IMG/VR virus record: IMGVR_UViG_3300021093_002702
Span: 1 to 24,073 of that record
DNA: 24,073 nt
Source of the DNA: a virus
Taxonomy: Duplodnaviria; Caudoviricetes
Reading direction: 5' to 3' (one strand)
Position numbers and translations under genes: made by a program. Below are positions 3,515 to 24,071 of the stretch, one piece after another; position 1 is the stretch's first letter; every line of letters begins with the position of its first letter. The notes beneath the pieces were generated by a model. That model was not told the DNA's origin. It made no database searches and saw only the letters and a program-made list of their open reading frames with translations.

Positions 3515-4408
3515 ATGAACATCTATTGGAACGAAGAATACTGCGCCCCACAAACCAACTTTGAGACCTTTCAGAAGTCACGGCTCATCGTTGAGCAACT
3601 GACCAAAGACCCAGACCCTTCCATCGCTATCTGCGACCCAGCCGATGTAGGCGGTTCGCTAGCCACAGCACAGCGTCAAGTAGAGAAGTACACCAACACC
3701 GAATACCTGCAAGCAGTGATGACGGGTCAGCCCCGTGGCTTGGCGGAGACCAACGGGTTCTCGTGGGATGACGGCGTGTATCGCTCAGTCATCAACTCAA
3801 CGGCAGGCATCTTGTGTGCCATTGACGACCTCATTGAGACCGACGAACTCACATCAGGCTCGCTTTCTAGTGGACTACACCATGCAAACGCAAGCAGGGG
3901 CATGGGCTTCTGCACCATCAACTCGCTTGCCATCGGGGCCCTGTACGCACGCGAGAAAGGCAAGAAAGTCGCAATCCTTGACCTTGACGCGCACTGCGGT
4001 GGTGGAACGAACAGCATGATTGCCAACACGACGATTGCCCACTTTGACCTCTCTATTAGCGGTCTTGACCATTATCAAAATACAGAAATGAACCCCTGGT
4101 CAATACTGAGGGTGACCCAAGCAGATAACGAACAGTACCTTCAGGAAGTTGACGACATGCTCAGCAAACTCGTTGCCTTCGGCCCCGAGATAGTTCTCTA
4201 CAACGCTGGGGTTGACATTTCCCCCAGTATTGACATGTTCTACTGCGCCATGCGTGATGCTTTGGTCGCTAAGCGGTTGTGCAACGACAACAACATCAAA
4301 ACGATGGTGGTCTGCGCTGGCGGTTATGGCGACTACGACCAAGTTGCTTGGCAACACACCCTGACCTTCACCGCTTTCTCCAAGCGGGACGCTGACGTGA
4401 ATGCGTGA
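3515..4408 (+). CDS. Zn-dependent histone deacetylase / acetylpolyamine amidohydrolase family protein
   Basis: Canonical motifs SGLHHA, GFC, DLDAHCGGGT, YNAGVD and AGGY. Confidence 0.9.
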   Translation: MNIYWNEEYCAPQTNFETFQKSRLIVEQLTKDPDPSIAICDPADVGGSLATAQRQVEKYTNTEYLQAVMTGQPRGLAETNGFSWDDGVYRSVINSTAGILCAIDDLIETDELTSGSLSSGLHHANASRGMGFCTINSLAIGALYAREKGKKVAILDLDAHCGGGTNSMIANTTIAHFDLSISGLDHYQNTEMNPWSILRVTQADNEQYLQEVDDMLSKLVAFGPEIVLYNAGVDISPSIDMFYCAMRDALVAKRLCNDNNIKTMVVCAGGYGDYDQVAWQHTLTFTAFSKRDADVNA

Positions 4409-4450: not shown

Positions 4451-4666
4451 ATGAGCGAAGTAACGAAAGAAGAAGCACAGTTGCAGGTACTGAAACACCT
4501 GAGCAAATCAATCCAACAGTGGGCTGGTGAAACAGACGAGGAAGCAGGCGACGAGTTTGCCCGTCTTGTCGTTGACGCACTAGCCTTGCAAGTAGTTGCC
4601 GTTGAGCCAGATGGCTACACGGCACGAATTAACATCACAACAATCAAGGAAGCGAGTACCAAGTAA
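4451..4666 (+). CDS. Hypothetical protein (71 aa)
   Basis: Follows the conserved promoter. Its stop overlaps the ssb start (TAATG). Confidence 0.75.
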   Translation: MSEVTKEEAQLQVLKHLSKSIQQWAGETDEEAGDEFARLVVDALALQVVAVEPDGYTARINITTIKEASTK

Positions 4667-5133
4667 TGGCAACAGCAACACTCACGATTTCGGGGAACGT
4701 GACCAACGACCCTGAACTCACCTACACGCAGAGCGGGGCGCCACGCCTCGCATTCGGCGTTGCGGTGAACTACGGATACACCGACGCACAAGGCGAGAAG
4801 CAGGAAAAGACCTCGTACTTCAATGTCACCGCATGGCGTTTTCTCGCAGAGAACTCAGCACGCACCCTTGAAAAGGGCATCGGCGTCGTCGTAACAGGGC
4901 GCTTGGAACAGCGTTCGTATGAGGACAAAGATGGCATCAAGCGTTCAGTCGTGGATTTGATTGCCGACGAAATCGGTATCGCTACTCGCTCGTTGGAGAG
5001 TGTTGAGCGCCGTGTCAAGCAAGACAACGGTGGTCAGCAGCAAGCCCCTGCTCGCCAACAGTCGGCCCCGCGTACCCGCCCAGCAACCGCAAAAGTCGCA
5101 GCAGCCGCACCAGCAGGTGAAGAGCCGTTCTAA
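4666..5133 (+). CDS. ssb: Single-stranded DNA-binding protein
   Basis: OB-fold pattern GNVTNDPEL...TAWRFLAEN...GRLEQRSY, with a Q/P/A-rich linker and acidic EEPF tail. Resembles actinobacterial SSBs. Confidence 0.95.
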   Translation: MATATLTISGNVTNDPELTYTQSGAPRLAFGVAVNYGYTDAQGEKQEKTSYFNVTAWRFLAENSARTLEKGIGVVVTGRLEQRSYEDKDGIKRSVVDLIADEIGIATRSLESVERRVKQDNGGQQQAPARQQSAPRTRPATAKVAAAAPAGEEPF

Positions 5134-6966: not shown

Positions 6967-9900
6967 TTAATCTAATACAACTTCAACCGTAACATAGCCG
7001 TCGTCAATTGACACGATTTTTAACTTTGTGCCCCTTGGAAGCAAAAATTCCGCTTCTTCAATCACTTGTGCATTACCTTCCCAATCGTAATTACCTCCTT
7101 CTTCACGGGGTGTCAGTGCTGTGGTTATTGTGCCGCGCGCGCCTGCGGGAACAAGTATTTTTAATATTGGCATCGCCCTCAAGCGAGACCTATCTTTACC
7201 ACGGTACGAAGCCGAAAACATATCCCATTTCGCCCATCTGCTGTTTTGTGGTGGCTGGTCGTCACCGTAGTCGCGATATTGCATGGTGATTGCGGCAGGG
7301 CTCAATGACGTAGACATATATCCCTTTTCGCTGACGATTCCGCCAACACCAGCCTCGTCAATCATCTGCATTACTTTCCAATTTGTGATTCCCCTAAATA
7401 CCGTGATTGATTCTTCAAGTGGAGGAGAATCCTTAATTATTGAGTCAATGTTCGCAATTTTCTTGCGCGCATCGGTGACTTCTTTCTCTATGAGTTTTTC
7501 TGGAGACTGTACAATGCCATATTGGTCGGGATACTTCAAAGCGAAATTTGTCAAGGACCCCTGGTATCGACTCATTATGCGTTCGTTCTCTTTAATTATT
7601 TCTTGGAGGCGGTCGTCAGCATACTTTTCTGGGCCAAGTCTCAAAAGTCTATTTATGTCGAAATATCCGCCCCTACCGTACCCACCAAACCCAATCAAAG
7701 AATTAAATTTCTTATACGTTTCTTTGTCATCATTAATCTCGTGCTTGCCTGCAACAAGTTTTATCCCCACGCCCCCTTGCATATATGCGGTGTAGTGTTC
7801 GAGAAGTTTTTTAAAACGGGCAACATAACGCGGGAATCGGCGAGGCGGATATTGGCCAGTATCAATACGCCATCCAATTTCAGAAAAAATGGTGGGGTCG
7901 GGCTGAAGGTCTTCGGCTATTTCAGCAGCCAATGGGTCAGGATATGTCGGCAATAAGTCAAGGTTCTCACCAGTCGGGTCTATCCGCTCAATGTCTTTGT
8001 ATGGTGGTATGTGTCGTCGTTGTGGTGTGATTGCGGAACCAGATGACCTTAGCGTCGTCGTCACGTCCGCTGGGTCTGCGCCAGCCGCACCAGCATCTAT
8101 TGCTTCAAGCATTTCGTCAACTCTGGCAACATATTCATGGAATTGCGAAGTCGAACCAGCGATTCTTCTTTCCCTAAATCCGATTCTAGACCAAAACGGA
8201 TTACTACTATCTGTCGTTTCGAGGAAGACTTTTCTGACATTCCTGCCCCTGCCGTCTTCAAGCACTCTCTTGAAGAGATAACTTCCCATTCCAGGTGTGT
8301 TCTGGAAACTCACCAAATAGTCCACGAACATCATGCGCCCCGTGATTCTGTTGTCTGGGGGCAATGACTCTGGGTCATCACTGTAAGGCACGTTTGGTGT
8401 ATTGAACGTAACGTCAACACCAAGGAAACCCCACATAGCCATTCCAGCAAGTGTCCCATCGGGATTCGTGATGACCACGTACTTGTTGTCGTATTGGTCT
8501 CGTCTTGGGTTGTTGCTGTTTGCCCGTAGGGCTCTAATCATCAAGCGTGCCAGTCTGTTCGCCTCGTACGCTCTGTTGAGTACTTCTTCCTGTTGTTCAA
8601 GTTCATATAACAGTTCCTCAACTTCGGTCAGTCTGAAGTATCCCTTCTCCGTAAGTTCGCCAGCGTCTGCTCGTGACTCAAGATTCAATTGCTCATCTTG
8701 CAGTCTCATCTTCTTATCTTCCAACATTTGAGATGCTCTGTCGAGTTTCCTATCCGAGTCATCCAATAGTCTCGTAATCTTCTCATACTCTTGTACGGTA
8801 AAATCTTTTTCGGACTTTTCTGTGATGTTAAGAGAGTCAAGACGGTCTTGCGTCATTTGCGCCCGTCTCCCTATGCTGACCAATTCCCATCGCTTGTCTG
8901 GCGTAATTGGTGTTTCTCCACGCGACGGCGGCGGCCCTACGGGGCCTGGGACGTTGTTGCTGCTTGAACGCAATTGACCCAGGTTCCTGTCTCCAACCAT
9001 GCCCTGTTGTGCTGCCGTGGAAAGGAAATTTGACGTTTGCTCCCTGCGAGACGAGCGGTCGTCGTAATCCTCTTTGCGTAGGCGAATGAACTCAGCAAGC
9101 CCTTGTCGCAAGACATCAGGAAGGCGTGTTGATTTATCGCGTTTGCCAACTGCGCGCTTAAAGAGTTTTTCGGCAAGTTTCTCCAAGCCCTCGTCATCTT
9201 CTGGAATCGCTAGTTCTGGTTGCCCGTTCGGATGAAGTGGAGTGCTTGCAAAAGCCCACCCATGGAGTCTCAATACCTCTTCAATTTCATCAACAAGTTT
9301 CCTGAATATACGCTCACGTGTCGAATTGGAAAAGTTGGCGTCTGGTTGGTTGCTCATTAGGGCGTAAAGCGGGTCGTATGATGGCCCGCCCACTGCATCA
9401 TTGGCCTTAACCAAATCTCTCACGCGCGCCCGCGCATTGGAGGAGGCTCCGCCAGAACGTAGCGTTTTTGGCTTTTGCGACGCAATATAAGCGCGATAAT
9501 GCATCATCCTGTAGTTGTGGGCTGTCAATCGACTGACCCCTAGTATTTCCGCTGTTTCTTGGCCGCTGAATCCAAGTAACTTCATTTCATTTACAATCAT
9601 GTACACGTCTTCGTCGAGTTGCGGTCCCTTTGACGATTTCTCGTCTGCTGGTATGCCCTTATAAACCAAGTCGAGAAGTGATACTAAGTTGTCAAAATCT
9701 TGGGTTGATTTGGTGGTTGTTTCTTGGTCCACTCTCGCATCTTGGTCGCCAATGCCAATCTCATCGATAAACTTTCGTGCTGCGTCGGCTACCGACATGC
9801 CATTGGCACGGTTGTTTTTGTAATTGAAATAGGCGTCCTGTCTCTGCTGTCGTGTTATTTTGCGACTGTAATCCATTTCGCTGCGCGCACCTTGGGGGTC

Positions 9901-12900
9901 GGCTCCAACAAAACGTTTTCCAGTTCTTGAGACTTTGGTTATCTTGCCCTCGTTTTTCAATCTTCTCAGCAGTTTGCTCGCCTCGGGAGCGCCAATTCCA
10001 AGTTCTCTGGCTATTTCGCCACTGGCGTATCCAGCCTCGACCAATCTGATTACCGCTTGTTCGCGCTCAAGGTTGCGCGGTCTGCCACGAGGACGACGGG
10101 CCCCGCTGGAGCGAAGGCTTGTTTGTGACGATGGCGTGCGTTGCCAGCCAAGGTCTTCCAAATCAATCGTCACGAATGGGTCCCATGGCAATGTCGAATT
10201 CCAGTATGGGCGTATGTATGGGTCTTCGTAGTACGTTTCGGGGTCAAAGTAGATTCCCAAAGCCTTCATGACATCATCGCTGAGTTCGCCTGACTCGCGC
10301 AATCTTTCCAAACTCGTGTATTCATCTGGTCTTATGTTGCGCATGTTAGCCACACCATCCCAGTCTCCTCGCAAAGAGGCAACGATTTCTGCTTTCACTA
10401 TGTCATCAATGGTCGGGTCGTCGTTCACCTTTTGGATTGTGTCCTCAAGCATCCGTGTGAGTGTGCTTCGTCTCATTGCGGGAACCAGGCGTTGAGCGAA
10501 ACCACTTACGAGTTCCGTGTTTTTTAGAACCGACTTCACATCTTGTGAAAGCGAGTCGTATAGTTCCCTTTGCTCTCTGGTCCAATTAGCGCCAAGGCCC
10601 TCAGTGAGTGTCATTCGGTCAAAGCCTTCCGCCTGAAGTTTTTGTATGTCAGCAAAGTTTCTCCACCACGCGGGGCCCATCAATGCGTACGGCCAGAAGT
10701 TGGACATGTATTCGCCATGACGAGTAAATCCCTGTCCAAGGATGAAGTGCCCGATTTCGTGTGTGCCAGACTCAAGCGTGCTATCGTCGGTTATTCTTGG
10801 CATGTTCGGGCTACCGAGTTGCATGGACAAGAATGCGTCCAGCGCGGACTCAAACATATTGGCTTCGCCAGATACGTCTGTTGCCGCCATATTTGAGAAC
10901 TCACCCTTACTATGCGAGAACATGTCGGCCATCTGTCTAACTCTTGCTCGCAGTTGCTCGCTGTTGAGACCTTCTGATTCCTTGAGCATCTGCACGAATC
11001 TTTGACCAAGTCGTTCGAACAGGTCAATGTGACCCTCAAGGCGCTCTATTTCCCTACGGACCAAACTCTCCATATGTCTGCCCGCTGGAGTTGGAGCGAA
11101 TTCCATTTGTTGTGCTTGTTCACGCGCTTTGGCAAGTCTCTGGCGAAGCGCCGCAAGGCTTCCTTTACGAGAATCACCCCTGAACTCTGCTTGCAAGTTA
11201 TCGCGTGTCCCCACAATGTCATGGTCGAGAACCCCAACAGCCTCCAGCATTGCGCCCATGATTGCGTCGTTGGTATTGCCGAAAAGCAAGTCATTGTAAT
11301 GTGGGTTTTCTCTTCCAAGGCCCTCGATTATTTGTCGTGGGCTCAACGGACTACCGTCATATACTGATACTGACTTCTTGACGGTCATAATCACATTGCG
11401 CCTAGCATCTGTGTACGTCCAGGAATCACCAACATATTGGCCGAGACCCGCATCAAGAAACATCTTGTACGCACTTGTTCCGCCTATGAACCCAGCGCCA
11501 ACGCGCGTGAAAGTCCCATCTTCGCGGCGGTGTTCGTAAGAGCCAAACATCTTGTTCAGGCGATTGAGTTCGCGCGCCCATACGGCGTTTATCGCCATGA
11601 GTCGGTCGTACGTTGGAGAACCCATAGTGCGTATAAGGGCTATGTCTGCTTCGTCGCCAAGAACATCGGCAAGTTCGCTATGGATTGGCCCGTTCACTTT
11701 CTTGACACGATGCCCCTCAATCGCTATGACTCCCCAACCAGACTGCGAAGCCAACTTGGCTGCTTCCGTGACGATTGCTTTAAGTACGGTCTTGTCTTCG
11801 TCTGTAAATGGGGTATCACTGATTGGCTGGTACGTGCCATAGTCGGTCTCTATGGTTTCGGTTTCATTATCAATACGACGCATCAGCATCTCTAACGGTT
11901 GTGCGGTCTGTCGGTTAAACAGTTCCAACAACACCTTGCCGTACTTGCCATCTGGGCGCATGTCCTCTTCTTTTACGCCATATGCGCCGAGTCGCTCAAT
12001 AAGTCTGTTGCGGAATCTGTCAGGCTTTGGCGTGCCGATTACCGATGGTGCTGCGCCCCGCGTTGGTGACCCAGATGACCGCAAGTTCACTCCGTTAATC
12101 ATTGGGTATGGCGCTCCGCGTGCGCCCATTGAGCGCAAACTCATGATGTATTCGTCATCTGCAAGGTCTGGTCTGTGTGGTGTGAGTAGACGTTTGGCTG
12201 AGTTGATGGCGGCTTCTCTTTCGCCCTCGTATGGCGTTCTGCGAGCAAGGCGCGCCGATGCGATAATCTTTTTCCATATCCTCTCTGGTACGCCACGTGG
12301 CACGGACGAGGAGTCAGATGGGGTTGCGTCAATAAGCGCTTCTTCGTAGTCGGCGTTGTACTCTTCGCGAAGCAACTGGTCGTGGTCTCTAGACCATCGG
12401 CTACGTTCGCCTGCGGTTATTCCCTCAAATACGGGGTCCAACATATCCTCAAGTCGTCTGCGTGTTGACTTCTCTCTGAAGTCAGCACCAGGCATGACAT
12501 CAAACCATCGGGCTGGTCTAGACCTCTTCCACGCATCAAATCGTTGGTCAAAGAAACCCCTGTAAATCCACTCAAGCCAATGGTTCGCCTCGTATGAACC
12601 GATGTCCTCGTCGTCCAACTCATGGTCTTCTAGGTCAACGCCGTCAACAAGTTCGTCTTCGTCTGTTGCGTCCCTTTGTATTTGCCACCTGATGTCAAAA
12701 TGGTCATCGTCGTCAAGCAAGTCTTGGAGTATCTTGTGTCGCGCTTGTAGGTCGTCGGCTGACGGGGCCGCTGACGCCTGTGCGTCAAGGGCGGCAAGCA
12801 CGTCCTGAAGTCTCTGTCTGTAGTCCTCTGGGACATCCAAGCCGACTTGTTCACCAAGGAACTTGCGAATGGCATAAGCAAGGCCCGCACGGTCTTGATG

Positions 12901-15900
12901 TGCGTCAAGCATTTCATTCAGTGTGTTGATGTCGCTTGCGATGGTATCCGATATGTCTTTTTGTTCCATTTCCAACAGAATTTTCTCTGCCATCACCGCA
13001 TCGAACTCTTTGTCTATTTCGTTGTCAATCTCTGGCGTCAATTCGCCAGCGTTGTCAAGGTCAAGGTACCTATTGTCGAGTTCTGAGAGTTTCTCGTCTA
13101 GCGCTTCTATTCTTTCTGTCAACTTCGTATGTCTGTCAATGCGGGTTTGTATGTCAGCAGCGTACATTTCGGGTGTTACACCAGGAAGAGACCGACCTGC
13201 TTTTCGTCTGTTGTTGCGACCAGCAAACCACGCACGCTCCTGCTTCTTGGCAGTCTCAAACGCCGTATTGCCCCCAAGACGGAGAGCCCGTGGCGGTTCT
13301 ATTCCATACTCTTGCCTGATAACTCGGCTGTATGCGTACGTACTCATCTGTGTGGCTGTGACACCAAGCGGGTCAGTCATGCGTAGCAGCGTCGGGGCTC
13401 CGTCGTCGTCGAGCAACATCGTTGTCGCTATACCACTACTGCGTAGCGAACGAGGATTGCGAGGGGTGACAGACATACCGCTAAAACGCCTGATGTCAGA
13501 AAGCGACACGGCTTCGTCAACCATTGTCAAGGAGCCTCTGTTGAGAACGTGGATTCTTGACCGAGCCAAGGCACTTTGGCTTTCGGACAAGAAGTCGTAG
13601 CCAAGAAGAATCGCTGCGGTTTGTCTTTTACGTGAGTCCGCGGTTGGGTCAGTAAGCGATGAGAAAAGACCGAACAACCAACTTGCCTGCTCTTTAACCG
13701 ACTGCCTATCGCTGTCGCTGCCACGCTCGGAATATGTCAAGTGGTCGGCGAACATGCCGAATATTGAGTACATGTCGTCTTTCTTTTGATTAGATAGTCC
13801 GAACTCGTCAAGATAGTTCATCAAGGCTGCGCTATTGACCGTGTACACATCTCCGTGGCCGCGTATGAGTAGATATTCACCTCTCACCCGTACGTTCTTT
13901 AGGGCAGATATTGCGCTCCATGGTGAATCAAGGTCGTCCCTATCAGGCAACAAGCCCTTCATCACATCGTCAAGGTCACGTGCCAACAGGCCCAATCCTG
14001 CCCGTGTTACCCATCTGGCATTCTTGTCTGTGACACCGAGTAGGGCCACCTTGTTTCTTGCTGGGTCGACTGTTGGGTCGTCTGGGTCGGCAAACCTATC
14101 CGTGTACATGTCTGGAGTGGTTGTGAAAATCGGGTCAAGAAGGAATGAATCTTCCTCTTCGTCCCATTCCGTGCTTCTGTTGCCCGTGAGGAAGTTGCGT
14201 ACCGTGAGTCGCGCGAATCGGTTCCGCATGCGAGAGTCTTGTGTTATGCCAACAAGAATTATGCCGTCCGTATCTTCGCTCTGATTAATCCATGGATTGG
14301 GGGTGTTTTGACCGTAGTTTGCTGCGCGCTTCAGACGGGCATCGGCATCGTACGGCTGAATCAGTAGTGGTAGTTCGTCGCCGCCAGTCGTCTCTCGCGT
14401 ATGTAGTAGTTCTTGTGTCGGGTCCGTATCGCCCGTGATTGAGTTGCGTGAACTATTGAATATTCCGTTTAGTCTGCCAACCCGTTCGCCAATAGTCTGT
14501 AGCGCACGTCTGCTTAGTTCTTCTTCCGTCACTACTTCGGGGTCAACTATGTCTCTTTGTACGACATCACCTTCTTGTTGGGCGAGTGCCCGTAGCGTTT
14601 CCCTTTCTGTTTCTCTCTTTGGAAGCATCAAGTCAAGCGCGGCCCCGCGTCTACGCTCCTCTGCGATTGCGGCACGACGAGCGATGATGGAAGCGGTCGG
14701 GTCATCATCGCTAATGACGAACGACGGCAGGTAATCTGGGTCGTTATCAACACTGTCGAGTTCCATTGAGAATTCACCGCTGTAGATGTTCCTAAAGAGT
14801 TCTTTCCAAGCGTTCTTTTGCGATGGCTCCATGCTTTCCACGTCAAGCAGGTTGGCAAGAAGGGTTAGCGACGCTTTGCGCTCAACGCCTGGTTCGCGGT
14901 TCCTGTCCTGTATCGCTAGGGCAAGCCACAAGCCGATGCGTTCACGCATTCTCATGTCGCTTTCGCTTATGTCTGCGTCCGTCTTGTCGCCAAACCCAGT
15001 CATACCAAGGACGTTATCTCTCAGGCTTGACGACGAGAACTTCCTTCTGCGCCCGCCATTCTTGTCAAGGCGAGCCTGAATCAGCGCTTCGTCAAGGTCG
15101 CCCATTGACTCGTGCGCACGCTTGCGTGTCGCCCTGTCGTTGGAGAGTGCGCCAACGATGAACTCGGCTGCTCTAATCAATTTCGCAAAGTCCACGCCCT
15201 GTTCGTCAAAGTCAAGGCGGCGTGTACCTGAGTCTTTGGGGTGAAAGCCATGACGGGGCCACACGATGGGGCCGTCCATCGCCGCCGACAGGGTAACGCG
15301 AGTGCCAGGATTCTGCTTCCACCATTGGAATGCGTGTTGATTCAGGATTGTGGCTGCGCCACGGTCTGGAATCCCCGTCATGTACATGTTTTCGTGACGC
15401 ACAACGAGTTCGCCGTTGGAGACGTATACGAGGCGCGTGAACGTACCCGCATCACCACTCGGCGGTTTCATCGACGGGTCATCGTAGAGTACCTTGCCGT
15501 AGTACTTAAATGCGGGTGAGTCTTCATCGCCAGGTCCAGTGTTCGTGCCTCTGAACGTAAAGATTGAGCCCTCCCACTCGTCAGTCTTTCGTGGGCGAAC
15601 AATCAACTCTGTGGAGCCCGTGGAAATGCTTTGTCCGCCTTTGTCCATTAGGTACGCGCGTTCACCAACAGCAAGCATGTCGCGAATGCTTTGTAGCACT
15701 TCTCGTTCCTCGTTATCAAGCGTTACGTCGACGGTCGCGGCTACCCATTTGCGTCCAGGTCTAAACTCTCCTCGTCCTCTTATCCTGCGCCCCATGCCCT
15801 CGTAGTAAATCGGCATTTCGCCACGCTCTAGCAATGCGTCGAGTTGGTCGAGCGACAACTCGGATTTGTAGCCATGGAAGCCGCCTATGACTTCTAGTTT

Positions 15901-18900
15901 CTGACTGGTTTCGCCCTGTATGCGGTCGACCCATCGTACTTCTGGCGCGCCGAGTGGTCCTGTGCGTAGAACGCCGTCAACGCGACCAAAGATGTTTTGT
16001 AGTACTTCCAAGCGTCGCTTCGGGTCGTATGCGGCGAACCGCTGTATCGTTCGTGCGTCGTCAACCCATGGGCGAGCGCCGCCGTACTTCTTGGCGATGC
16101 CTTCACGCGCCTTGTCTAGACGCTTGCTCACCGACCTGTTGAGCGTGGCACGTATGCGACCGAGCGTCTTTGCGACCAGTTGCCTTGCTGACTCTGACCG
16201 TTGTGCCGTGTTTTCGGCGATGATGTCCAACTCGTCGTCAATGTCCGCCCCCACACCGCTTGCGCCAGTAGAACGCAAGCCGTACATGCGCTCGTTTACT
16301 GCCGCTGTGTCCGTGCGACGCGCGAGGTCGACTTCCATGCGCTGTTGTTCTTCACGCGTGTAGCGCGGGCGCGGAGAACCGAACTTACGCATCGCGCCTG
16401 GCTTGTCGGAGAACCTATCGACTGGACGCATGGCGTCGTGTCGTGGGTCGTATGTTTCTACGTGCTTGATGGTTGCCGTAACCTGCCCGTCCACCATGTC
16501 GATGGCGACAACTTCGAACACCCCTTGCGTAAGGTATTGGTCGTTATCGACATCTATCGCTTTCGCGCCGCGTTGTATGCGAATGACCGCGTCACCCGCG
16601 TCCACGCGTGGGCGCGCGCGAGTGAACGCCGTAATCGGCAACGGGATGCGTTCGCCAACGACCAAGCCCTCTACGAGCGAACGCGGGTCGACGCGAACAA
16701 CGCGATACAACTCGTGCTTGTTCGGCTGCGTGCCCTGAACGGCTGAGTGTATGTGTGTGGCGTTCTTGAGCGCTGTCTCCACGCGCGCGCGTGAGGACGC
16801 TGGCAAATCGCGCACGCGACCGCTGACCAGTCCGCGGAGCATCGCTCGGTCGGTCTCTGACGTCGTGTCGTACGTCGGCACGTCGTCAACGAACATGCCG
16901 AACTGCGTTGCCGAGATGGCACGCACCATGTCGCCATCGTGCGGTTTGTTGCGGTTGACGAACGCACGCCCAGCGATGTATCCAAGCGTCGTTCGGCGCC
17001 GCATCGCCGCCGACTGCGCGTACGGGATACCAGTGTCGTAGAAACGATGGTCGCCAACGCTCAGTACGCGCGAACGTGCGCGGAAATCCGAAACGGTGAC
17101 GGGCGCATCGAATGCGTACAAGCGTTCGTCGGTATCTATGCCGATGTTGCTCGCGCCAGACCGCAAACGGCTGCGTTCGTCTGGGTCAAAGCGCATACTG
17201 CGTGAGTCGACCGCGCTGACGCGTCCAGCGGAGCGTAGCCCTGCCCTGTGTCCGTCTGGCCCGCGCCGTTCGTCTGGCATGATGGCTCGCTCCGTGGAGG
17301 TCGCTGGCACGAGGTCTGGCGCGAAATCGGTGTCGTACGTTCCGTCTCGCTTCTTTCGTCTTCTTCTTATTCCGAGGATGCCGTGCTTTTCGGTGAGCGG
17401 TCCGTCTTTATCTCTGCGCATGAAAATCGTCGTGATTATGTCGAGCATTGCGTCGTTGACCATGAACGGTTTGTCGCGGAAAATCCGCATGAACACGCCA
17501 AGCACTGCTTCTGGTATGCGCTCTTGCCACTTGAGTTGACCGTATGCCGTGCGTACGTACCCTTCCGTCGAGGTGGGTGCCTTCTGCGCCGCCAAGGAGC
17601 GTCTCTGTCTTAGGTCATCGCGAGATGCGAGCGGATTTCGCTCCAGTCCGCGTTCGCTTAGGTCTGCGAGCAGTCCACCTTGTTGGAAACCATCTTTGTA
17701 CAACCTGAACATGCCGAGTAGGAACGCATCTTCCATTTCTTTTCTGCTTGCGTATCCGTACTCTTCGTATTTGTCGAAGTCGATTACGGGTCTTTGTTGG
17801 GGTACCGCGCTACGGGGGTCGTTGGGGTCTCTGGCGTCGTACAGGTCGTCGCCGAGCAACTTTTTCCGCGTGTCATGCCAGAATTTCGCCCAACTTACGA
17901 CGCGACCATCGGTTTTTGCCTGAGCGTACGTAAATTCTGGGTCGCTGCTGATGTGAAAGCCGTGTTCCCACAATGTTTTGTCCAACCACTCGCGCGCTTT
18001 CGTGCGAGCGTCACCTGGTTTGTCGCCTGCCGCGATGAATTCGGCTTCCTTTTCTGCCGCCCGTGCGGTCAAAATGCGAATGCCTTCCATTTGTAGGTGT
18101 TCGTGATAAAAGTGGACCCACTCATGTAGCGGTGTCGCCGCTGGTCCGATTTGCGTGACCGAATTGAGGTTTTGCGTGTCGATAATGTCTTCGGATACGC
18201 CGATGGGCGTCATGAGCGAGATGTCTATGGTTTCTGGGGCGATGGAGATTATTCCAGAGCCTTTGGTCGTAAACGCGCCGAGACCTTCGGATGCGTAGGA
18301 GCCGAAAAGGTTCGGTATGTCGCCACCTTGGTCTATCGAGCGTGACGCTTTCCCGATTTCCCCATCGGCGGCAAGGAGGTCGTATGAACCCTGTTTCCCC
18401 CTGAGTAGGCGACTAAAAAACGAGTTAGTTTGTCGCCCCTGCTGGTCTTCTGTGGCTGTCATGCGGGAGCCTTCCGCTACGTAGAATTTTCTGTTGCCCA
18501 GTCTTCGCAAACGCGAAAGGAGTTTGCGGCGACCAGCGGGCGTTCTATCCCTGACCTCTGCTGCGGTTATGTACGCATCGTCTGGGAGCCTGTGTGCTTC
18601 CGCCGTAAACAGCGGGTGGAGAACCGTGTACGCTGGCACTCCGTATTTTTGCCATGCTTCGAGCATCATCGGGTTTTCCCGTAGCGCGCGCTCCAACACC
18701 GCTCGCAATTTTTGTATGGTGTCTTTATCGTGCGTGACCACGGGCATACCTTGCGGTATCGGGTCTCGCTTTATTAGGCCCATGCTTTCTGTATGTACTC
18801 TTGCGTCTAGGCGAACGTCGAGTTTTCTTCTACCCGTAGCGGGGTCGAACATGGCCAATGTTGTTTCTGACTGCCCTGGGAAAAGGATTTGTGCCGCGTG

Positions 18901-20352
18901 ATGGATACTGGGTGCTTGCGCGGCGAGTGCGATGCGAGCCTTCAGTTGCTCTGGGGTCAAAAGACTGCCTGCTTGCGCCTCGCGTGTCACGCCTGCGTCT
19001 GTGACGATTTTTCGGTTCGCTGACCATGCGAAATAGTCTTCCCAGACCATGCCGAGTAGTTCCTCGCCAGTCATGCCCTGCGTATTCCACGAACGAGTTG
19101 GTTTTAGTAGTAGTTCTGGTTTATCCATTCGTATCAGCACTACGGCGCCGTCACCGCCATTAGTTGGGAGGGCGTGTGCGGCTGCTGACCTATCCGAGAG
19201 TAGGTATGCCGCGAAAGCGTGTAACGGGTTCAGTGGTGGGGAAAGCACTATTGACTGGGGTAATTGTGGTTCGAAGTCGTTGTCTACGGCTTGTAGGTAC
19301 ATGAGTTGTTGTCTGGGTATCCTGTCGCGGATTACCTTGTAGATTTGTCGCTTCCATGGTGGGGTATTGGGATTTGCGATTATCTCGTCAAGGAATGTTT
19401 GTTGGCTAAGGTCTTCCAACCCTGGGAGTGTGGTGACTGTGCCGCTGAGTTGTGTGTCGATTACTGGCGTTCCCACGAGTGACGATAGAACCACGTGGTC
19501 ACCAAGCAACTTCACCATGTTCTCTCTGAATAGGGCTTTGTTTCTGTGTGCGTGTTCCTCATAACTACCCGTACCGTATTTCGCGTCATACAGACTGCGA
19601 GCCTTATCGTGTTGGTTGAGGAGTGCGGTGTACATCGACCTAGCGTGGGCACGCTGTGTTTCTAACGCTTTCTCGTAATCAGCCTGCGATGCGTACTGAC
19701 TAGGGTGACCTACTGTCTGTGTAGAGGCGTGTTCTATGACGCCTTCCATGGTGTCGGGTACTGCTAGTTCTGCTAGTTCCTCAGGCGTCATGTCGGCAGT
19801 AGAACCTGGCAGACGATGGTCTTTGTTTCTTAGTTCTGTGGCTCTATCTCTTAGTGTCGCTGAAACGCCCGTGGCGCCTGCGGCGATTATCTGTGGTGGT
19901 GTGGGTATGACGTCGATTTCATTTATGTCTACGTCTGTGTAGAGGTCAAGCACATCACGCTGTGGTGTGGCGTCACTAGGCGTAGGTGTAGAGGTTCGCG
20001 TCGAACGTGAGTAATCTCTTACATCACTAGGCGTAGGTGTGGCAGCGGCTACTGCGTCTTGCTCTACTTGTATTGCGCTAGGCGATGCTTGCGAGCGTAG
20101 TACTACGGGTCGCTCCCAAGGTGAGCCGTCTTGTATTAGACCATCACCATCACCATCAAATGCGTTAGGGTCAAACGCTTCTACTGCGTTGCGTATCTTG
20201 CCGCTACCTTTGGCGATACTTTGACCTAAAGCACGAAGGCGGCGACCTATGCGGTTGCCTACCTTTACATCAAGTTCATACTTTTCGCTGTAATCCATGC
20301 CCATCGGTTCTGTACCCGTCACCCGTCGCAACAGTTGCGCCTTACGATACAT
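6967..20352 (-). CDS. Giant multi-module (polyvalent-type) protein, 4461 aa, with C-terminal ADP-ribosyltransferase; putative polyprotein
   Basis: 13.4-kb uninterrupted ORF. HEWVH (aa 743) and HEIGH (aa 3198), two GNAT-like segments, HTHs, and a VIP2-like ART (R4320, STS 4347-4349, E4433-A-E4435). Eleven LRS motifs lie in linkers. Confidence 0.9.
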   Translation of the reverse strand: MYRKAQLLRRVTGTEPMGMDYSEKYELDVKVGNRIGRRLRALGQSIAKGSGKIRNAVEAFDPNAFDGDGDGLIQDGSPWERPVVLRSQASPSAIQVEQDAVAAATPTPSDVRDYSRSTRTSTPTPSDATPQRDVLDLYTDVDINEIDVIPTPPQIIAAGATGVSATLRDRATELRNKDHRLPGSTADMTPEELAELAVPDTMEGVIEHASTQTVGHPSQYASQADYEKALETQRAHARSMYTALLNQHDKARSLYDAKYGTGSYEEHAHRNKALFRENMVKLLGDHVVLSSLVGTPVIDTQLSGTVTTLPGLEDLSQQTFLDEIIANPNTPPWKRQIYKVIRDRIPRQQLMYLQAVDNDFEPQLPQSIVLSPPLNPLHAFAAYLLSDRSAAAHALPTNGGDGAVVLIRMDKPELLLKPTRSWNTQGMTGEELLGMVWEDYFAWSANRKIVTDAGVTREAQAGSLLTPEQLKARIALAAQAPSIHHAAQILFPGQSETTLAMFDPATGRRKLDVRLDARVHTESMGLIKRDPIPQGMPVVTHDKDTIQKLRAVLERALRENPMMLEAWQKYGVPAYTVLHPLFTAEAHRLPDDAYITAAEVRDRTPAGRRKLLSRLRRLGNRKFYVAEGSRMTATEDQQGRQTNSFFSRLLRGKQGSYDLLAADGEIGKASRSIDQGGDIPNLFGSYASEGLGAFTTKGSGIISIAPETIDISLMTPIGVSEDIIDTQNLNSVTQIGPAATPLHEWVHFYHEHLQMEGIRILTARAAEKEAEFIAAGDKPGDARTKAREWLDKTLWEHGFHISSDPEFTYAQAKTDGRVVSWAKFWHDTRKKLLGDDLYDARDPNDPRSAVPQQRPVIDFDKYEEYGYASRKEMEDAFLLGMFRLYKDGFQQGGLLADLSERGLERNPLASRDDLRQRRSLAAQKAPTSTEGYVRTAYGQLKWQERIPEAVLGVFMRIFRDKPFMVNDAMLDIITTIFMRRDKDGPLTEKHGILGIRRRRKKRDGTYDTDFAPDLVPATSTERAIMPDERRGPDGHRAGLRSAGRVSAVDSRSMRFDPDERSRLRSGASNIGIDTDERLYAFDAPVTVSDFRARSRVLSVGDHRFYDTGIPYAQSAAMRRRTTLGYIAGRAFVNRNKPHDGDMVRAISATQFGMFVDDVPTYDTTSETDRAMLRGLVSGRVRDLPASSRARVETALKNATHIHSAVQGTQPNKHELYRVVRVDPRSLVEGLVVGERIPLPITAFTRARPRVDAGDAVIRIQRGAKAIDVDNDQYLTQGVFEVVAIDMVDGQVTATIKHVETYDPRHDAMRPVDRFSDKPGAMRKFGSPRPRYTREEQQRMEVDLARRTDTAAVNERMYGLRSTGASGVGADIDDELDIIAENTAQRSESARQLVAKTLGRIRATLNRSVSKRLDKAREGIAKKYGGARPWVDDARTIQRFAAYDPKRRLEVLQNIFGRVDGVLRTGPLGAPEVRWVDRIQGETSQKLEVIGGFHGYKSELSLDQLDALLERGEMPIYYEGMGRRIRGRGEFRPGRKWVAATVDVTLDNEEREVLQSIRDMLAVGERAYLMDKGGQSISTGSTELIVRPRKTDEWEGSIFTFRGTNTGPGDEDSPAFKYYGKVLYDDPSMKPPSGDAGTFTRLVYVSNGELVVRHENMYMTGIPDRGAATILNQHAFQWWKQNPGTRVTLSAAMDGPIVWPRHGFHPKDSGTRRLDFDEQGVDFAKLIRAAEFIVGALSNDRATRKRAHESMGDLDEALIQARLDKNGGRRRKFSSSSLRDNVLGMTGFGDKTDADISESDMRMRERIGLWLALAIQDRNREPGVERKASLTLLANLLDVESMEPSQKNAWKELFRNIYSGEFSMELDSVDNDPDYLPSFVISDDDPTASIIARRAAIAEERRRGAALDLMLPKRETERETLRALAQQEGDVVQRDIVDPEVVTEEELSRRALQTIGERVGRLNGIFNSSRNSITGDTDPTQELLHTRETTGGDELPLLIQPYDADARLKRAANYGQNTPNPWINQSEDTDGIILVGITQDSRMRNRFARLTVRNFLTGNRSTEWDEEEDSFLLDPIFTTTPDMYTDRFADPDDPTVDPARNKVALLGVTDKNARWVTRAGLGLLARDLDDVMKGLLPDRDDLDSPWSAISALKNVRVRGEYLLIRGHGDVYTVNSAALMNYLDEFGLSNQKKDDMYSIFGMFADHLTYSERGSDSDRQSVKEQASWLFGLFSSLTDPTADSRKRQTAAILLGYDFLSESQSALARSRIHVLNRGSLTMVDEAVSLSDIRRFSGMSVTPRNPRSLRSSGIATTMLLDDDGAPTLLRMTDPLGVTATQMSTYAYSRVIRQEYGIEPPRALRLGGNTAFETAKKQERAWFAGRNNRRKAGRSLPGVTPEMYAADIQTRIDRHTKLTERIEALDEKLSELDNRYLDLDNAGELTPEIDNEIDKEFDAVMAEKILLEMEQKDISDTIASDINTLNEMLDAHQDRAGLAYAIRKFLGEQVGLDVPEDYRQRLQDVLAALDAQASAAPSADDLQARHKILQDLLDDDDHFDIRWQIQRDATDEDELVDGVDLEDHELDDEDIGSYEANHWLEWIYRGFFDQRFDAWKRSRPARWFDVMPGADFREKSTRRRLEDMLDPVFEGITAGERSRWSRDHDQLLREEYNADYEEALIDATPSDSSSVPRGVPERIWKKIIASARLARRTPYEGEREAAINSAKRLLTPHRPDLADDEYIMSLRSMGARGAPYPMINGVNLRSSGSPTRGAAPSVIGTPKPDRFRNRLIERLGAYGVKEEDMRPDGKYGKVLLELFNRQTAQPLEMLMRRIDNETETIETDYGTYQPISDTPFTDEDKTVLKAIVTEAAKLASQSGWGVIAIEGHRVKKVNGPIHSELADVLGDEADIALIRTMGSPTYDRLMAINAVWARELNRLNKMFGSYEHRREDGTFTRVGAGFIGGTSAYKMFLDAGLGQYVGDSWTYTDARRNVIMTVKKSVSVYDGSPLSPRQIIEGLGRENPHYNDLLFGNTNDAIMGAMLEAVGVLDHDIVGTRDNLQAEFRGDSRKGSLAALRQRLAKAREQAQQMEFAPTPAGRHMESLVRREIERLEGHIDLFERLGQRFVQMLKESEGLNSEQLRARVRQMADMFSHSKGEFSNMAATDVSGEANMFESALDAFLSMQLGSPNMPRITDDSTLESGTHEIGHFILGQGFTRHGEYMSNFWPYALMGPAWWRNFADIQKLQAEGFDRMTLTEGLGANWTREQRELYDSLSQDVKSVLKNTELVSGFAQRLVPAMRRSTLTRMLEDTIQKVNDDPTIDDIVKAEIVASLRGDWDGVANMRNIRPDEYTSLERLRESGELSDDVMKALGIYFDPETYYEDPYIRPYWNSTLPWDPFVTIDLEDLGWQRTPSSQTSLRSSGARRPRGRPRNLEREQAVIRLVEAGYASGEIARELGIGAPEASKLLRRLKNEGKITKVSRTGKRFVGADPQGARSEMDYSRKITRQQRQDAYFNYKNNRANGMSVADAARKFIDEIGIGDQDARVDQETTTKSTQDFDNLVSLLDLVYKGIPADEKSSKGPQLDEDVYMIVNEMKLLGFSGQETAEILGVSRLTAHNYRMMHYRAYIASQKPKTLRSGGASSNARARVRDLVKANDAVGGPSYDPLYALMSNQPDANFSNSTRERIFRKLVDEIEEVLRLHGWAFASTPLHPNGQPELAIPEDDEGLEKLAEKLFKRAVGKRDKSTRLPDVLRQGLAEFIRLRKEDYDDRSSRREQTSNFLSTAAQQGMVGDRNLGQLRSSSNNVPGPVGPPPSRGETPITPDKRWELVSIGRRAQMTQDRLDSLNITEKSEKDFTVQEYEKITRLLDDSDRKLDRASQMLEDKKMRLQDEQLNLESRADAGELTEKGYFRLTEVEELLYELEQQEEVLNRAYEANRLARLMIRALRANSNNPRRDQYDNKYVVITNPDGTLAGMAMWGFLGVDVTFNTPNVPYSDDPESLPPDNRITGRMMFVDYLVSFQNTPGMGSYLFKRVLEDGRGRNVRKVFLETTDSSNPFWSRIGFRERRIAGSTSQFHEYVARVDEMLEAIDAGAAGADPADVTTTLRSSGSAITPQRRHIPPYKDIERIDPTGENLDLLPTYPDPLAAEIAEDLQPDPTIFSEIGWRIDTGQYPPRRFPRYVARFKKLLEHYTAYMQGGVGIKLVAGKHEINDDKETYKKFNSLIGFGGYGRGGYFDINRLLRLGPEKYADDRLQEIIKENERIMSRYQGSLTNFALKYPDQYGIVQSPEKLIEKEVTDARKKIANIDSIIKDSPPLEESITVFRGITNWKVMQMIDEAGVGGIVSEKGYMSTSLSPAAITMQYRDYGDDQPPQNSRWAKWDMFSASYRGKDRSRLRAMPILKILVPAGARGTITTALTPREEGGNYDWEGNAQVIEEAEFLLPRGTKLKIVSIDDGYVTVEVVLD

Positions 20353-20569: not shown

Positions 20570-20581
20570 GTTAGATTTATC
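20570..20581 (-). promoter_or_regulatory. Repeated gene-junction motif GATAAATCTAAC, copy 1
   Basis: The identical 12-mer also occurs at 21310 and 21883, each at a gene boundary. Confidence 0.5.
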
Positions 20582-21050
20582 AGATTGCAGGGGGAAGCGA
20601 AACGCCCCTTCGGTGATTGCTGATGATTTCATCAACTGATGTTCCTGAACTGACCTTGTTGAATCCTTTTTCTCTGTCATAAAAGACCCAAGAGATTTCA
20701 TGGATGGACAATTCACTGACCACTTGGTACAAGGTTTCATACACGTTCAAGCCGCTGCAGGTGTAGATGTCGAATTGAATGTGTGCTGGTTGTGGTTCGT
20801 CCCAGATGTGCAAGGCAATATGGCTTGTCTCAATCATTACTACAGCCGTCAGTCCCTTGTTGCCAGGCTTATTGACGTAATGGACAAATGGGCCCGCGAT
20901 TTTGTACATTCCGATATCTTCGACAAGTCTGGTTAGCCACTTCTTCATCTTCCGCTTGTTGGTAAGGGTTGACTTATTTACACAGTTGGCGTAACTCTTG
21001 GCGTTGATGAGTAGATGATTGTGCTGCGGCGCTTTTCTTAGTTCGCTCAT
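20580..21050 (-). CDS. speD: S-adenosylmethionine decarboxylase family (pyruvoyl-dependent) proenzyme
   Basis: GLTAVVMIETSHIALHIWDE...FDIYTCS corresponds to the SpeD/SpeH pattern ESHxxxHxWPE...DxxTCG. Substrate is uncertain. Confidence 0.8.
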   Translation of the reverse strand: MSELRKAPQHNHLLINAKSYANCVNKSTLTNKRKMKKWLTRLVEDIGMYKIAGPFVHYVNKPGNKGLTAVVMIETSHIALHIWDEPQPAHIQFDIYTCSGLNVYETLYQVVSELSIHEISWVFYDREKGFNKVSSGTSVDEIISNHRRGVSLPPAI

Positions 21051-22223: not shown

Positions 22224-22818
22224 TGTCAACCACCTCTGCATCGATAATAGGCGGCTGCCCGAGCATCTGGGCGACAGTATCTTTTGGCAAGACGCCAGAA
22301 ATCGCCATCAATTCCAACAACTTCTTAGCCTCACTTTCTGGGTCAAAGGCATTGATTTGCTTCGGCATGCCTTCTTGACCAGCCAGGGTCGCGCGAATCG
22401 GCGCCTGCTGGGTGCTTTGAGCGACATCGGCAGAGACGTTGATGTTGGTCTGCTCCATACCGAGCAACTTTGACCGTCTATCCATGATTGCCAATACTTG
22501 CTGCACCGCCTTCATATCTGGCTCGACAGACACCTCGGTGCCGTCATCGAGCGTCACTTTACGATGCTGCGTTAGCGGCCACAGTGCGGCCTGCATCGCG
22601 TCAAGACGCTCCAACTCCATGCGCAACACTTCTGGGTAAACAAGTGAACTTTCTTTGTTGAGTTTTTCCAGTTGTCGGGAAATAGCCAAAGAAACAACTT
22701 TTGATGACACGCCCATTCGCTTAGCAATTTCCGATATTGCCACACCTGCCTGGCGCATCTTGAAAATACGCGAATCCCTTTCGGCAAGAAATTCTTTTGT
22801 CATTGGGGTGTTGCTCAT
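22138..22818 (-). CDS. HTH DNA-binding protein, terminase small subunit-like
   Basis: N-terminal HTH (AGVAISEIAKRMGVS), then MELERLDAMQAALWP...AVQQVLAIMDRRSKLLG and an IIDAEVV tail, as seen in actinophage HTH/TerS-like proteins. Confidence 0.65.
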   Translation of the reverse strand: MSNTPMTKEFLAERDSRIFKMRQAGVAISEIAKRMGVSSKVVSLAISRQLEKLNKESSLVYPEVLRMELERLDAMQAALWPLTQHRKVTLDDGTEVSVEPDMKAVQQVLAIMDRRSKLLGMEQTNINVSADVAQSTQQAPIRATLAGQEGMPKQINAFDPESEAKKLLELMAISGVLPKDTVAQMLGQPPIIDAEVVDSESGESRQLESGDRQSGGDAEADSIDNQ

Positions 22819-24071
22819 GTTGGCGCCTTAACCGAGGCTGGCCACTCGACCACCTCAAATGGGAATCGTTTCCCCCTCTTAATTCTAGTTGGCCACTGGC
22901 GCTCGTCACGTGCACCTCTGAAATGACGAACGTCGTAGTGGTGTGCCATGCCCGTTGTATCTGGCTGTAGGGCGACGCCGAATTCTGGCCAGCGAGACCA
23001 CACCGCAGAACCGAATGGGCGCAATTCTCGCGTGGTCATAGATGTACCCAGCGGCGCATGGTGTTCCAGCCACATTGCGCACTGGTAAATGTCACGAATG
23101 GTGTCAAGATAACGAGCAACTTCTATTGCCACGGCTTCGCTGGTTCTGCCGCCTGGGTCAATAAATGATTTATACAAAGGCCCCATCACCAGCAGTGCGG
23201 GCTTAGTCTTTTCCAGCATTTCCTCCAGAACGGCCCTGTCTTCTGCGCGCAATAGGTCAAGACCTTGCGGCTTAATGAGCAAATGGGCCTGTGGTTTGGG
23301 GTTGCGAGATACAGATTTTGCGGCGGCGTAAATAGAGCGAGACGTTCGCCTGATAATTCGTTCTGGATTCTCCAGGTCAACAGAAAGTGTTGTCTGTGGC
23401 TTGATTGGTTGATACGTAAAGGGATGAATTCCAAAACCAACACATATTGCAACCTGTCTAGCCAGCATCGTTTTGCCGACGCCTTCGGCGGCAACCACAA
23501 TGCAACGCTCGCTTCGTTCAATCAAACCAGGGATTACCCAATCGTATGAATCGTCATCTGATTCGCTTACAAATTCGGACCATTCAACAAGTCTTCCAGT
23601 ATCAACTATTTTTGTGCTTGAGGTTCGAGAAATAATGAGTTGGGCGCGAGATAACTTCTGGCTCTCGGACATGTCGTCGCGTTCAAGCAGGTCGAAAATC
23701 TCGTTGATTGCCTTCCCCTCATGTGTTTGCGGAGCCACTTCTTGTGCGAGTGGCTCGTCTGAGATTTCGGACAACACAACTGCTTCAAGTTCATCAAACG
23801 TTCCACCAGAAGCGACGTGTTCACTTATGTCTTTGCCCTTGCCGCATTTCCATACCTGAACGTCACACCCAGCGTCAGTTAATTCTTCGTAGACACCTTT
23901 GGCGTGTTTGAGTCCTGCGTCGTCGTTGTCGGCGACGATTTCCACAACAGCACCAGCGAGGGCTTCTGTATGGATGGGCAACCACGTACCCGCCCCATTG
24001 GGCATAGTCGTTGCACAAATACCCATTTTGATGAGAGTGTCAGCATCTTTTTCTCCTTCGACTACCCATAT
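22815..24071 (-). CDS. Toprim primase fused to AAA_25/RepA-like helicase (5'-partial)
   Basis: The frame stays open to the window edge (IWVVEGEKDADTL, Toprim glutamate motif). Also ADNDDAG (DxD), Walker A AAEGVGKT, DLEN, EHHAP and RPFGS. Confidence 0.88.
   Translation of the reverse strand: MWVVEGEKDADTLIKMGICATTMPNGAGTWLPIHTEALAGAVVEIVADNDDAGLKHAKGVYEELTDAGCDVQVWKCGKGKDISEHVASGGTFDELEAVVLSEISDEPLAQEVAPQTHEGKAINEIFDLLERDDMSESQKLSRAQLIISRTSSTKIVDTGRLVEWSEFVSESDDDSYDWVIPGLIERSERCIVVAAEGVGKTMLARQVAICVGFGIHPFTYQPIKPQTTLSVDLENPERIIRRTSRSIYAAAKSVSRNPKPQAHLLIKPQGLDLLRAEDRAVLEEMLEKTKPALLVMGPLYKSFIDPGGRTSEAVAIEVARYLDTIRDIYQCAMWLEHHAPLGTSMTTRELRPFGSAVWSRWPEFGVALQPDTTGMAHHYDVRHFRGARDERQWPTRIKRGKRFPFEVVEWPASVKAPT

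Follow-up and report, generated by a model that had tools for sequence, protein, structure and literature searches.

A giant phage polyvalent protein with modules joined by a recurring, genome-specific LRSxG linker motif, a probable protease cleavage site

The tailed-phage record IMGVR_UViG_3300021093_002702 (IMG/VR; Duplodnaviria, Caudoviricetes), analysed here as a single stretch of 24,073 nucleotides (the window), carries on its minus strand an open reading frame (ORF; 6967..20352) for a giant polyvalent protein of 4,461 aa, about 501 kDa. Its modules are joined by a short linker motif, LRSxG, which recurs far beyond expectation; relatives carry other versions of the motif at the same joints, and within a genome one version is shared by unrelated proteins. 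The motif is probably a cleavage site for a protease of some kind. Packaging of the giant in the virion and its cutting into about nine large pieces are plausible on sequence grounds.

A preliminary description of this DNA had listed 11 LRS occurrences, eight of them LRSxG, against an expectation of well under one. A recount agrees on every residue, nucleotide and quoted codon, and 2,000 shuffles of the protein give a mean of 0.18 LRSxG (maximum 3) and 2.35 LRS (maximum 10). LRS.G ranks top among gapped four-residue patterns (p 1.7e-11), while the best pattern across 20 shuffled proteins, a control for pattern choice, reaches only 3e-7. The 18 other ORFs retained from the window (3,311 aa in all) contain no LRSxG. 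The S/G/P/R-rich setting described earlier is borne out by motif flanks that are 47% G/S/P/R/T, compared with 34% protein-wide, and conservation at the protein level by recurrence in homologues. The 11-member set holds for ten LRS sites and not for LRSQA at aa 85, which differs in 9/9 aligned homologues; several homologues instead have a site 7-70 aa beyond that position. A further joint, at aa 2357, has the degenerate form LRLGG in the window and reads LRS in 7/9 aligned homologues. Cutting at the ten sites would give pieces of ~1009, 24, 296, 944, 436, 18, 656, 218, 163, 307 and 360 aa. The true start is probably Met19 (nt 20298), as in most homologues.

Homologues preserve the joints and rewrite the motif. 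LRSxG occurs 3-12 times in 8 of 11 full-length homologues (expected 0.11-0.18), as the earlier proposal called for; the remaining three, P0011, P0012 and P0013, contain one, none and none. P0013 has 13 copies of LxSGR instead, several at joints equivalent to those of the window, the orthologue in genome G003 uses GLxSxT, and P0020/P0023 use GARSxS, again at the same joints. Across joints 1039, 1359, 2357, 2739 and 3413, Ser is invariant, the position two before it is L, M, F, I, V or A, and the Arg position varies freely (P, T, S, A, Q and N are seen). The version in G006 tolerates Ala or Thr in place of Ser.

The same versions appear in other virion proteins of sister genomes. In G003 (136 kb, 91% complete) the orthologue sits in a matching gene neighbourhood, and the genome also encodes terminase, portal, S78 prohead protease, capsid and sheath, which supports a portal-terminase phage origin; its WhiB genes suggest an actinobacterial host. 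GLxSxT occurs 27 times in five large G003 proteins (expected 0.71) and five times in 115 others (expected 1.89). G008 ends at the gene next upstream of the window's giant, with six collinear genes at 73-88% identity. It holds 17 LRSxG in its S78 protein and three head giants (expected 0.26) and three in 52 other ORFs, two of these in the tape measure; G009 holds 19 in head proteins and one elsewhere. One version thus recurs in the extended part of the S78 protein, in the head giants and in the tape measure's central linker, the kind of sharing that the preliminary description had proposed to look for.

The tape measure was assigned by synteny, as the long gene that follows those for sheath, tube and tail chaperone, and by one weak PHROG match; its central linker is rich in Gly/Ser/Ala. 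Profiles from head-protein sites were scored on each genome's tape-measure linker, leaving out the near-duplicates G017, G018 and G019 and the partial gene of G016. The own-genome profile was best on its own linker in 6/9 genomes (permutation p about 1e-4), compared with p 0.10-0.86 for five control windows. In G009 it came second, behind that of G008, which has the same version; no match was found in G012 or G014. Six core sites of the giant switch version together with unrelated genes. Because one version spans unrelated proteins of a genome, a single trans-acting factor probably reads the motif.

A second kind of site is separate from the linker motif. Relatives encode an HK97-type S78 protease, although none was found in G001 or G002, and Lys before a small residue marks the S78 protein, the capsid protein and a scaffold-like gene in every version examined. 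The giant has such a site near its N-terminus, K30, in 17/17 orthologues listed, as in HK97-type S78 substrates; at the internal linker sites, in contrast to those substrates, the basic residue is not conserved. HK97 itself cuts at K103/S104 (PMC10275583). Published capsid peptides of phage GMA6 start at residue 151, just past the homologous Lys (PMC4524720 Table S5), which is consistent with an S78 cut and not proof of one, because trypsin also cuts there. The accessible text of PMC4351075 contains nothing on S78 specificity. The N-terminal module around K30 also occurs in head giants and in the S78 proteins of P0014, G005 and G006, and is likely capsid-targeting, judging from this distribution. 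Shorter carriers were sought among 169 candidates, with one weak match, and cultured phages gave no match to the module.

Of 80 S78 loci, 42 were assigned by hand to seven motif versions, the rest being short or unclear. The LRSxG, LxSGR, GLxSxT and GARS groups have S78 domains 90-92% identical to one another and 81-89% identical to those of other versions, a similarity judged by identity and by eye, not by a formal pocket-residue test. The S78 polypeptide bears 3-4 copies of the linker motif. In P0014, L134, L141 and L145 the S78 prohead protease is extended to 2,500-3,165 aa, in some with 10-16 LSSG copies. The acidic scaffold-like protein that follows S78 (in G003, L044:7728-9083 (+)) has many Lys sites and PepSY-like repeats (PF03413 E 1.4e-4, below cut-off) and is conserved across the group. 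A role for this PepSY-like gene as a zincin inhibitor was considered and dropped: L160/L165 retain the gene without a zincin giant after it and with an S78 that lacks the motif.

Read from N- to C-terminus, the giant is laid out as follows, all on the minus strand:

20101..20298 (-): N-terminal module with the Lys site (K30), an Arg-rich segment and a DxDGDG...ERP loop; common to S78 prohead proteases and head-locus proteins
20086..20100 (-): LRSQA, aa 85, doubtful member of the motif set, not conserved
17488..18315 (-): zincin-like peptidase 1, HEWVH at aa 743-747, distal Glu 944/948 beyond a long insert
17224..17238 (-): linker motif LRSAG, aa 1039
17152..17166 (-): linker motif LRSGA, aa 1063, preceded by a conserved short helix; tracks motif version only partly
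16279..17157 (-): ADP-ribosyltransferase (ART)-fold module, aa 1066-1358, a confident fold flanked by two motifs, without catalytic Glu
16264..16278 (-): linker motif LRSTG, aa 1359
13447..16269 (-): 941-aa module, in which GNAT-like content is no more than a lead
13432..13446 (-): linker motif LRSSG, aa 2303
13270..13284 (-): degenerate joint LRLGG, aa 2357; motif intact in homologues
12139..13437 (-): acidic helical module with a DUF2786-like segment at its end (PF10979 E 0.0019, below cut-off)
12070..12138 (-): doubled linker motifs LRSMG, aa 2739, and LRSSG, aa 2757
10117..12075 (-): 653-aa module that includes zincin-like peptidase 2, HEIGH at aa 3198-3202, Glu 3214; confident model
10102..10116 (-): linker motif LRSSG, aa 3413, the boundary between the fixed core and the shuffled C-terminal modules
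9463..10107 (-): double helix-turn-helix (HTH) module (PF02796 E 6.7e-7, PF08281 E 3.4e-6)
9448..9462 (-): linker motif LRSGG, aa 3631
8974..9453 (-): 160-aa module with no family match, found in only some orthologues
8959..8973 (-): linker motif LRSSS, aa 3794
8053..8964 (-): coiled-coil-like segment and likely GNAT acetyltransferase (PF00583 E 0.069, weak)
8038..8052 (-): linker motif LRSSG, aa 4101
6970..8043 (-): C-terminal ART module (PF03496 E 1.7e-13; PHROG Alt-like matches), with R, STS and ExE residues present

One polypeptide thus combines several unrelated enzymatic and DNA-binding domains: ART, HTH, two HExxH domains and a weak GNAT. The joints between them coincide with the motif. 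Two AlphaFold2 models cover six of the ten sites (2303, 3631, 3794 and 4101 lie outside both), and all six fall within or border coil with a predicted local distance difference test score (pLDDT) below 50, in line with the linker location claimed beforehand. In the model of aa 2640-3480 (mean pLDDT 77.5; 102/841 residues below 50), sites 2757 and 3413 lie within such segments and 2739 two residues ahead of one; further low-pLDDT segments there lack the motif. In the model of aa 520-1420, sites 1039, 1063 and 1359 flank the confidently folded ART module; 446/901 residues are below 50, so low confidence upstream of that module is uninformative. Of 163 motif sites in orthologues, 21 lie within stretches aligned to modules of the window, compared with 117 expected; the count is partly circular, because the window's own sites define the modules, and joint 2357 accounts for many of the 21. 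Six sites lie within a core whose module order never changes. Beyond it, and independently of that count, C-terminal modules vary among orthologues (HTH-ART-GNAT, GNAT only, ART only, or several ARTs then GNAT), and most of these variable junctions, where HTH, GNAT and ART change number and order, carry the motif.

The internal ART-fold module (aa 1066-1358) is the best-conserved one. Foldseek relates it to R-S-E class ARTs (E 1.4e-5), with LTQG replacing ExE, and the catalytic Glu is absent in 16/16 aligned sequences covering it. On these residues it is likely inactive or binding-only, and possibly an NAD- or target-binding decoy. A word-index search among proteins of 161-513 aa, which does not prove absence, found no stand-alone copy. 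The 941-aa module has no significant match in Pfam or PHROG; its Atlas feature matches to GNAT/ART-PolyVal clusters score 0.81-0.83.

The mechanism we favour, at slightly under an even chance, combines head packaging through the N-terminal module with cleavage by a second protease, most likely the giants' own zincins, during or after ejection. The giant would enter the head by way of its N-terminal module and be trimmed at K30 by the HK97-type S78 protease. A protease distinct from that of the prohead would then cut the LRSxG joints, giving about nine effector pieces. Two codes would coexist, with S78 acting at Lys sites and the second enzyme at x-Ser linkers. The cut would come during or after ejection into the host, because cutting before packaging would strip the cargo from its single targeting module, and because the tape measure, normally outside the prohead lumen, shares a compartment with head cargo only post-ejection. 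First choice as the reader would be the zincins within the giants, which would travel with their substrate; their catalytic residues are conserved, and their sequences diverge strongly between versions. In peptidase 1, H743, E744, H747, E944 and E948 are invariant in 10/10 sequences, in a region modelled at low confidence; in peptidase 2 the H, E, H and HGE residues are invariant in 19/19. The zincin domain of the head giants is 22-47% identical between motif versions. The zincin IrrE cleaves between Leu and Arg within a basic loop (PMC6868357), and processing of polyvalent proteins by zincin-like metallopeptidases (MPTases), including after injection, was proposed by Iyer et al. 2017 (PMC5512222).

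Several points weigh against this mechanism. The window is only 24 kb long and lacks genes for the head or the tail, so what is argued from S78 and from the tape measure rests on sister genomes. In the tape-measure test the own profile ranked 4 in G010 and 6 in G015, and its first place in G006 was a near tie; the linker segment scored was picked after inspection, the head sites came from hand-written patterns, and the genomes are related. Joint 2357 has decayed in the window, the motif is weak in P0011 and P0012, and HExxH cargo domains also occur in cultured relatives, where such linkers are lacking. Neither HExxH domain has a Pfam match. Peptidase 2 has no Foldseek match at E 0.001 and its best VIA match (Z 7.5) is to an HTH, a search that used an 841-residue model able to mask one domain and is not evidence against the fold. 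The label zincin therefore rests on the motifs, with Atlas leads to LPD1/LPD5 clusters below 0.9. The virion RNA polymerase of N4 contains an MPTase and is yet packaged uncut (PMC5512222). Host proteases and a stand-alone HslV/proteasome-beta-like protease with Thr-Thr after Met (L032:441-1073 (-) in G003; also in G004, G005, G012 and G033) are alternative candidate readers; the latter was found in 3/5, 0/5 and 1/27 fragmentary records, too few to assess its co-variation with motif version.

The best-surviving rival, which we consider doubtful, is that the motif serves as a tag for docking, modification or translocation, recognised by a chaperone, the capsid surface, a kinase, a glycosyltransferase or the ejection channel, and left uncut. 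This would suit a motif found on proteins expected to traverse the tail, with tandem doubled copies and with Ser as the sole invariant residue at homologous joints, and G003 encodes glycosyltransferases. A copy at every joint, however, exceeds what packaging would need given a separate N-terminal module; Ala or Thr at the Ser position in G006 argues against Ser modification, and shuffling exactly at the motif suits the release of independent units.

Rather unlikely, and nearest to the view of the preliminary description, is cutting by S78 itself in the procapsid, at Lys sites and, with relaxed specificity, at x-Ser linkers. LR|S resembles the capsid site FK|S, Ser after the cut is shared with HK97 K103/S104 (PMC10275583), head-locus proteins hold most copies, the S78 polypeptide among them, and prohead proteases do process the SPN3US ejection proteins (PMC10052503). 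S78 is nevertheless a weak candidate, because its domain is nearly constant between versions, because the position of the basic residue is taken at homologous joints by Pro, Thr, Ser, Ala, Gln or Asn, and because a tail protein bears the motif; cultured S78 relatives, moreover, have Lys sites and no such linkers.

It is very improbable that the motif does nothing at the protein level and is either left over from module duplication or a crossover sequence for recombination. Module exchange at the motif, small tandem copies among homologues and the Leu codon skew (CTA/TTG at 10/11 window sites) would fit such an origin, but the sharing of one version by non-homologous proteins already largely refutes it. 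Also against it are the six fixed-core sites switching alongside unrelated genes, the codon use at G008/G009 sites, where Leu has five codons and Ser draws on both families (8 AGY, 28 TCN), and the absence of overlap between the sites and any of the 20 largest DNA repeat families. The shortage of AGA/CGA before TCN at motif sites is explained by genome-wide avoidance of GATC, which occurs 0 times in the window, G008 and G009 against 77, 187 and 157 expected and suggests that a host restriction system is avoided. Origin by chance or from DNA repeats was rejected on the shuffles, the codon diversity and the positions of the repeat families.

Polyvalent proteins join many unrelated domains per chain (zincin-like MPTases, ART, GNAT, HTH) in portal-terminase phages (PMC5512222). 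By its domain content the giant appears to behave as one of them, sharing the multi-domain chain, the phage type and the proposed MPTase processing, and the linker code would be an addition to that known kind. Unlike the proteins of PMC5512222, for which the accessible text gives no recurring linker motif or genome-specific code, it has explicit joints, shared with the S78 extension and the tape measure. No report of such a linker code was found in the literature searched at abstract level; the supplements of Iyer et al. 2017 may list related proteins.

The T4 prohead protease site is L/I-x-E. The analogy drawn earlier with T4 gp21 and phiKZ gp175 fits poorly: sites there end in Glu (AXE in SPN3US), LRSxG contains no Glu, and the relatives encode S78. 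In SPN3US, gp245 sites ending in Glu (AXE) are cut by the prohead protease (PMC10052503). A short motif, many sites and injected head cargo are features common to the T4/phiKZ/SPN3US systems (PMC10052503) and the present one, which differs in being Glu-free and in placing the motif also in a tail protein. HK97-type S78 maturation is matched by Lys plus a small residue at K30 and in the sister capsid, scaffold and protease, whereas the internal linkers form a second motif without a conserved basic residue. In lambda, gpH is cleaved within a region rich in glycine, by a mechanism stated to be unknown (PMC12617516; bioRxiv 10.1101/2022.09.20.507954), and the motif here likewise lies in a Gly/Ser/Ala-rich tape-measure linker. 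The cuts in lambda gpH and T5 pb2 fall near the C-terminus during tail assembly, with no motif shared with head cargo described in the available text of these sources.

The cultured actinophages Chidiebere, GMA6 and Cantare have a related S78 (39-42% identity), a sheathed tail and, in the head locus, a Lys site with a conserved short module joined to cargo of the ART, HNH or HExxH kind. Theirs is a different N-terminal module, with cargo of <=1,040 aa and no enriched x-Ser linker. Three such loci (L194 9204-13207, L195 8862-13003 and L196 7662-12118) combine the Lys site and an RVRxxxGxxxYGxPIG-like module with ART, HNH or HExxH cargo; that module is likely capsid-targeting, judged by sequence. 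One GMA2 virion peptide contains the YGxPIG motif of the module, a match at peptide level only (PMC4524720 Table S5). GMA6 orf13/orf14 are absent from the published virion peptide table, which has three GMA6 proteins (PMC4524720).

Processing of polyvalent proteins has been proposed since 2017 without predicted sites, and the joints here are explicit. The motif supplies domain borders for giant phage proteins that are otherwise unannotatable, and the sister phages, with near-identical prohead proteases and different linker versions, are natural specificity controls. Two putative codes are separated, and a candidate tape-measure site is named while the cutting of the lambda tape measure is stated to be unknown in the sources cited above. 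More tentatively, a genome-wide ejection code may operate in these actinobacterial myoviruses, in which all host-entering proteins, from head cargo to the tape measure, would bear a private linker motif that a second protease reads post-injection, distinct from the Lys code of capsid maturation. If so, each lineage would have rewritten the motif at >=30 sites, this would be a polyprotein system of DNA phages in which protease and motif fit as lock and key, and both a candidate site and a candidate enzyme would be available for tape-measure cleavage.

The window's giant lies amid replication genes, and its orthologue in G003 is ~22 kb from the capsid gene. Neighbours in the window include a LysM protein (12-332, +), an SNF2 helicase (323-2269, +), an SSB (4666-5133, +) and a primase-helicase (22815-24026, -). 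A histone-deacetylase-family gene (3515-4408, +; PF00850 E 4.7e-25), also present in G003, lies near the giant with its GNAT-like modules, and an S-adenosylmethionine decarboxylase gene (20580-21050, -; PF02675) stands immediately upstream of it.
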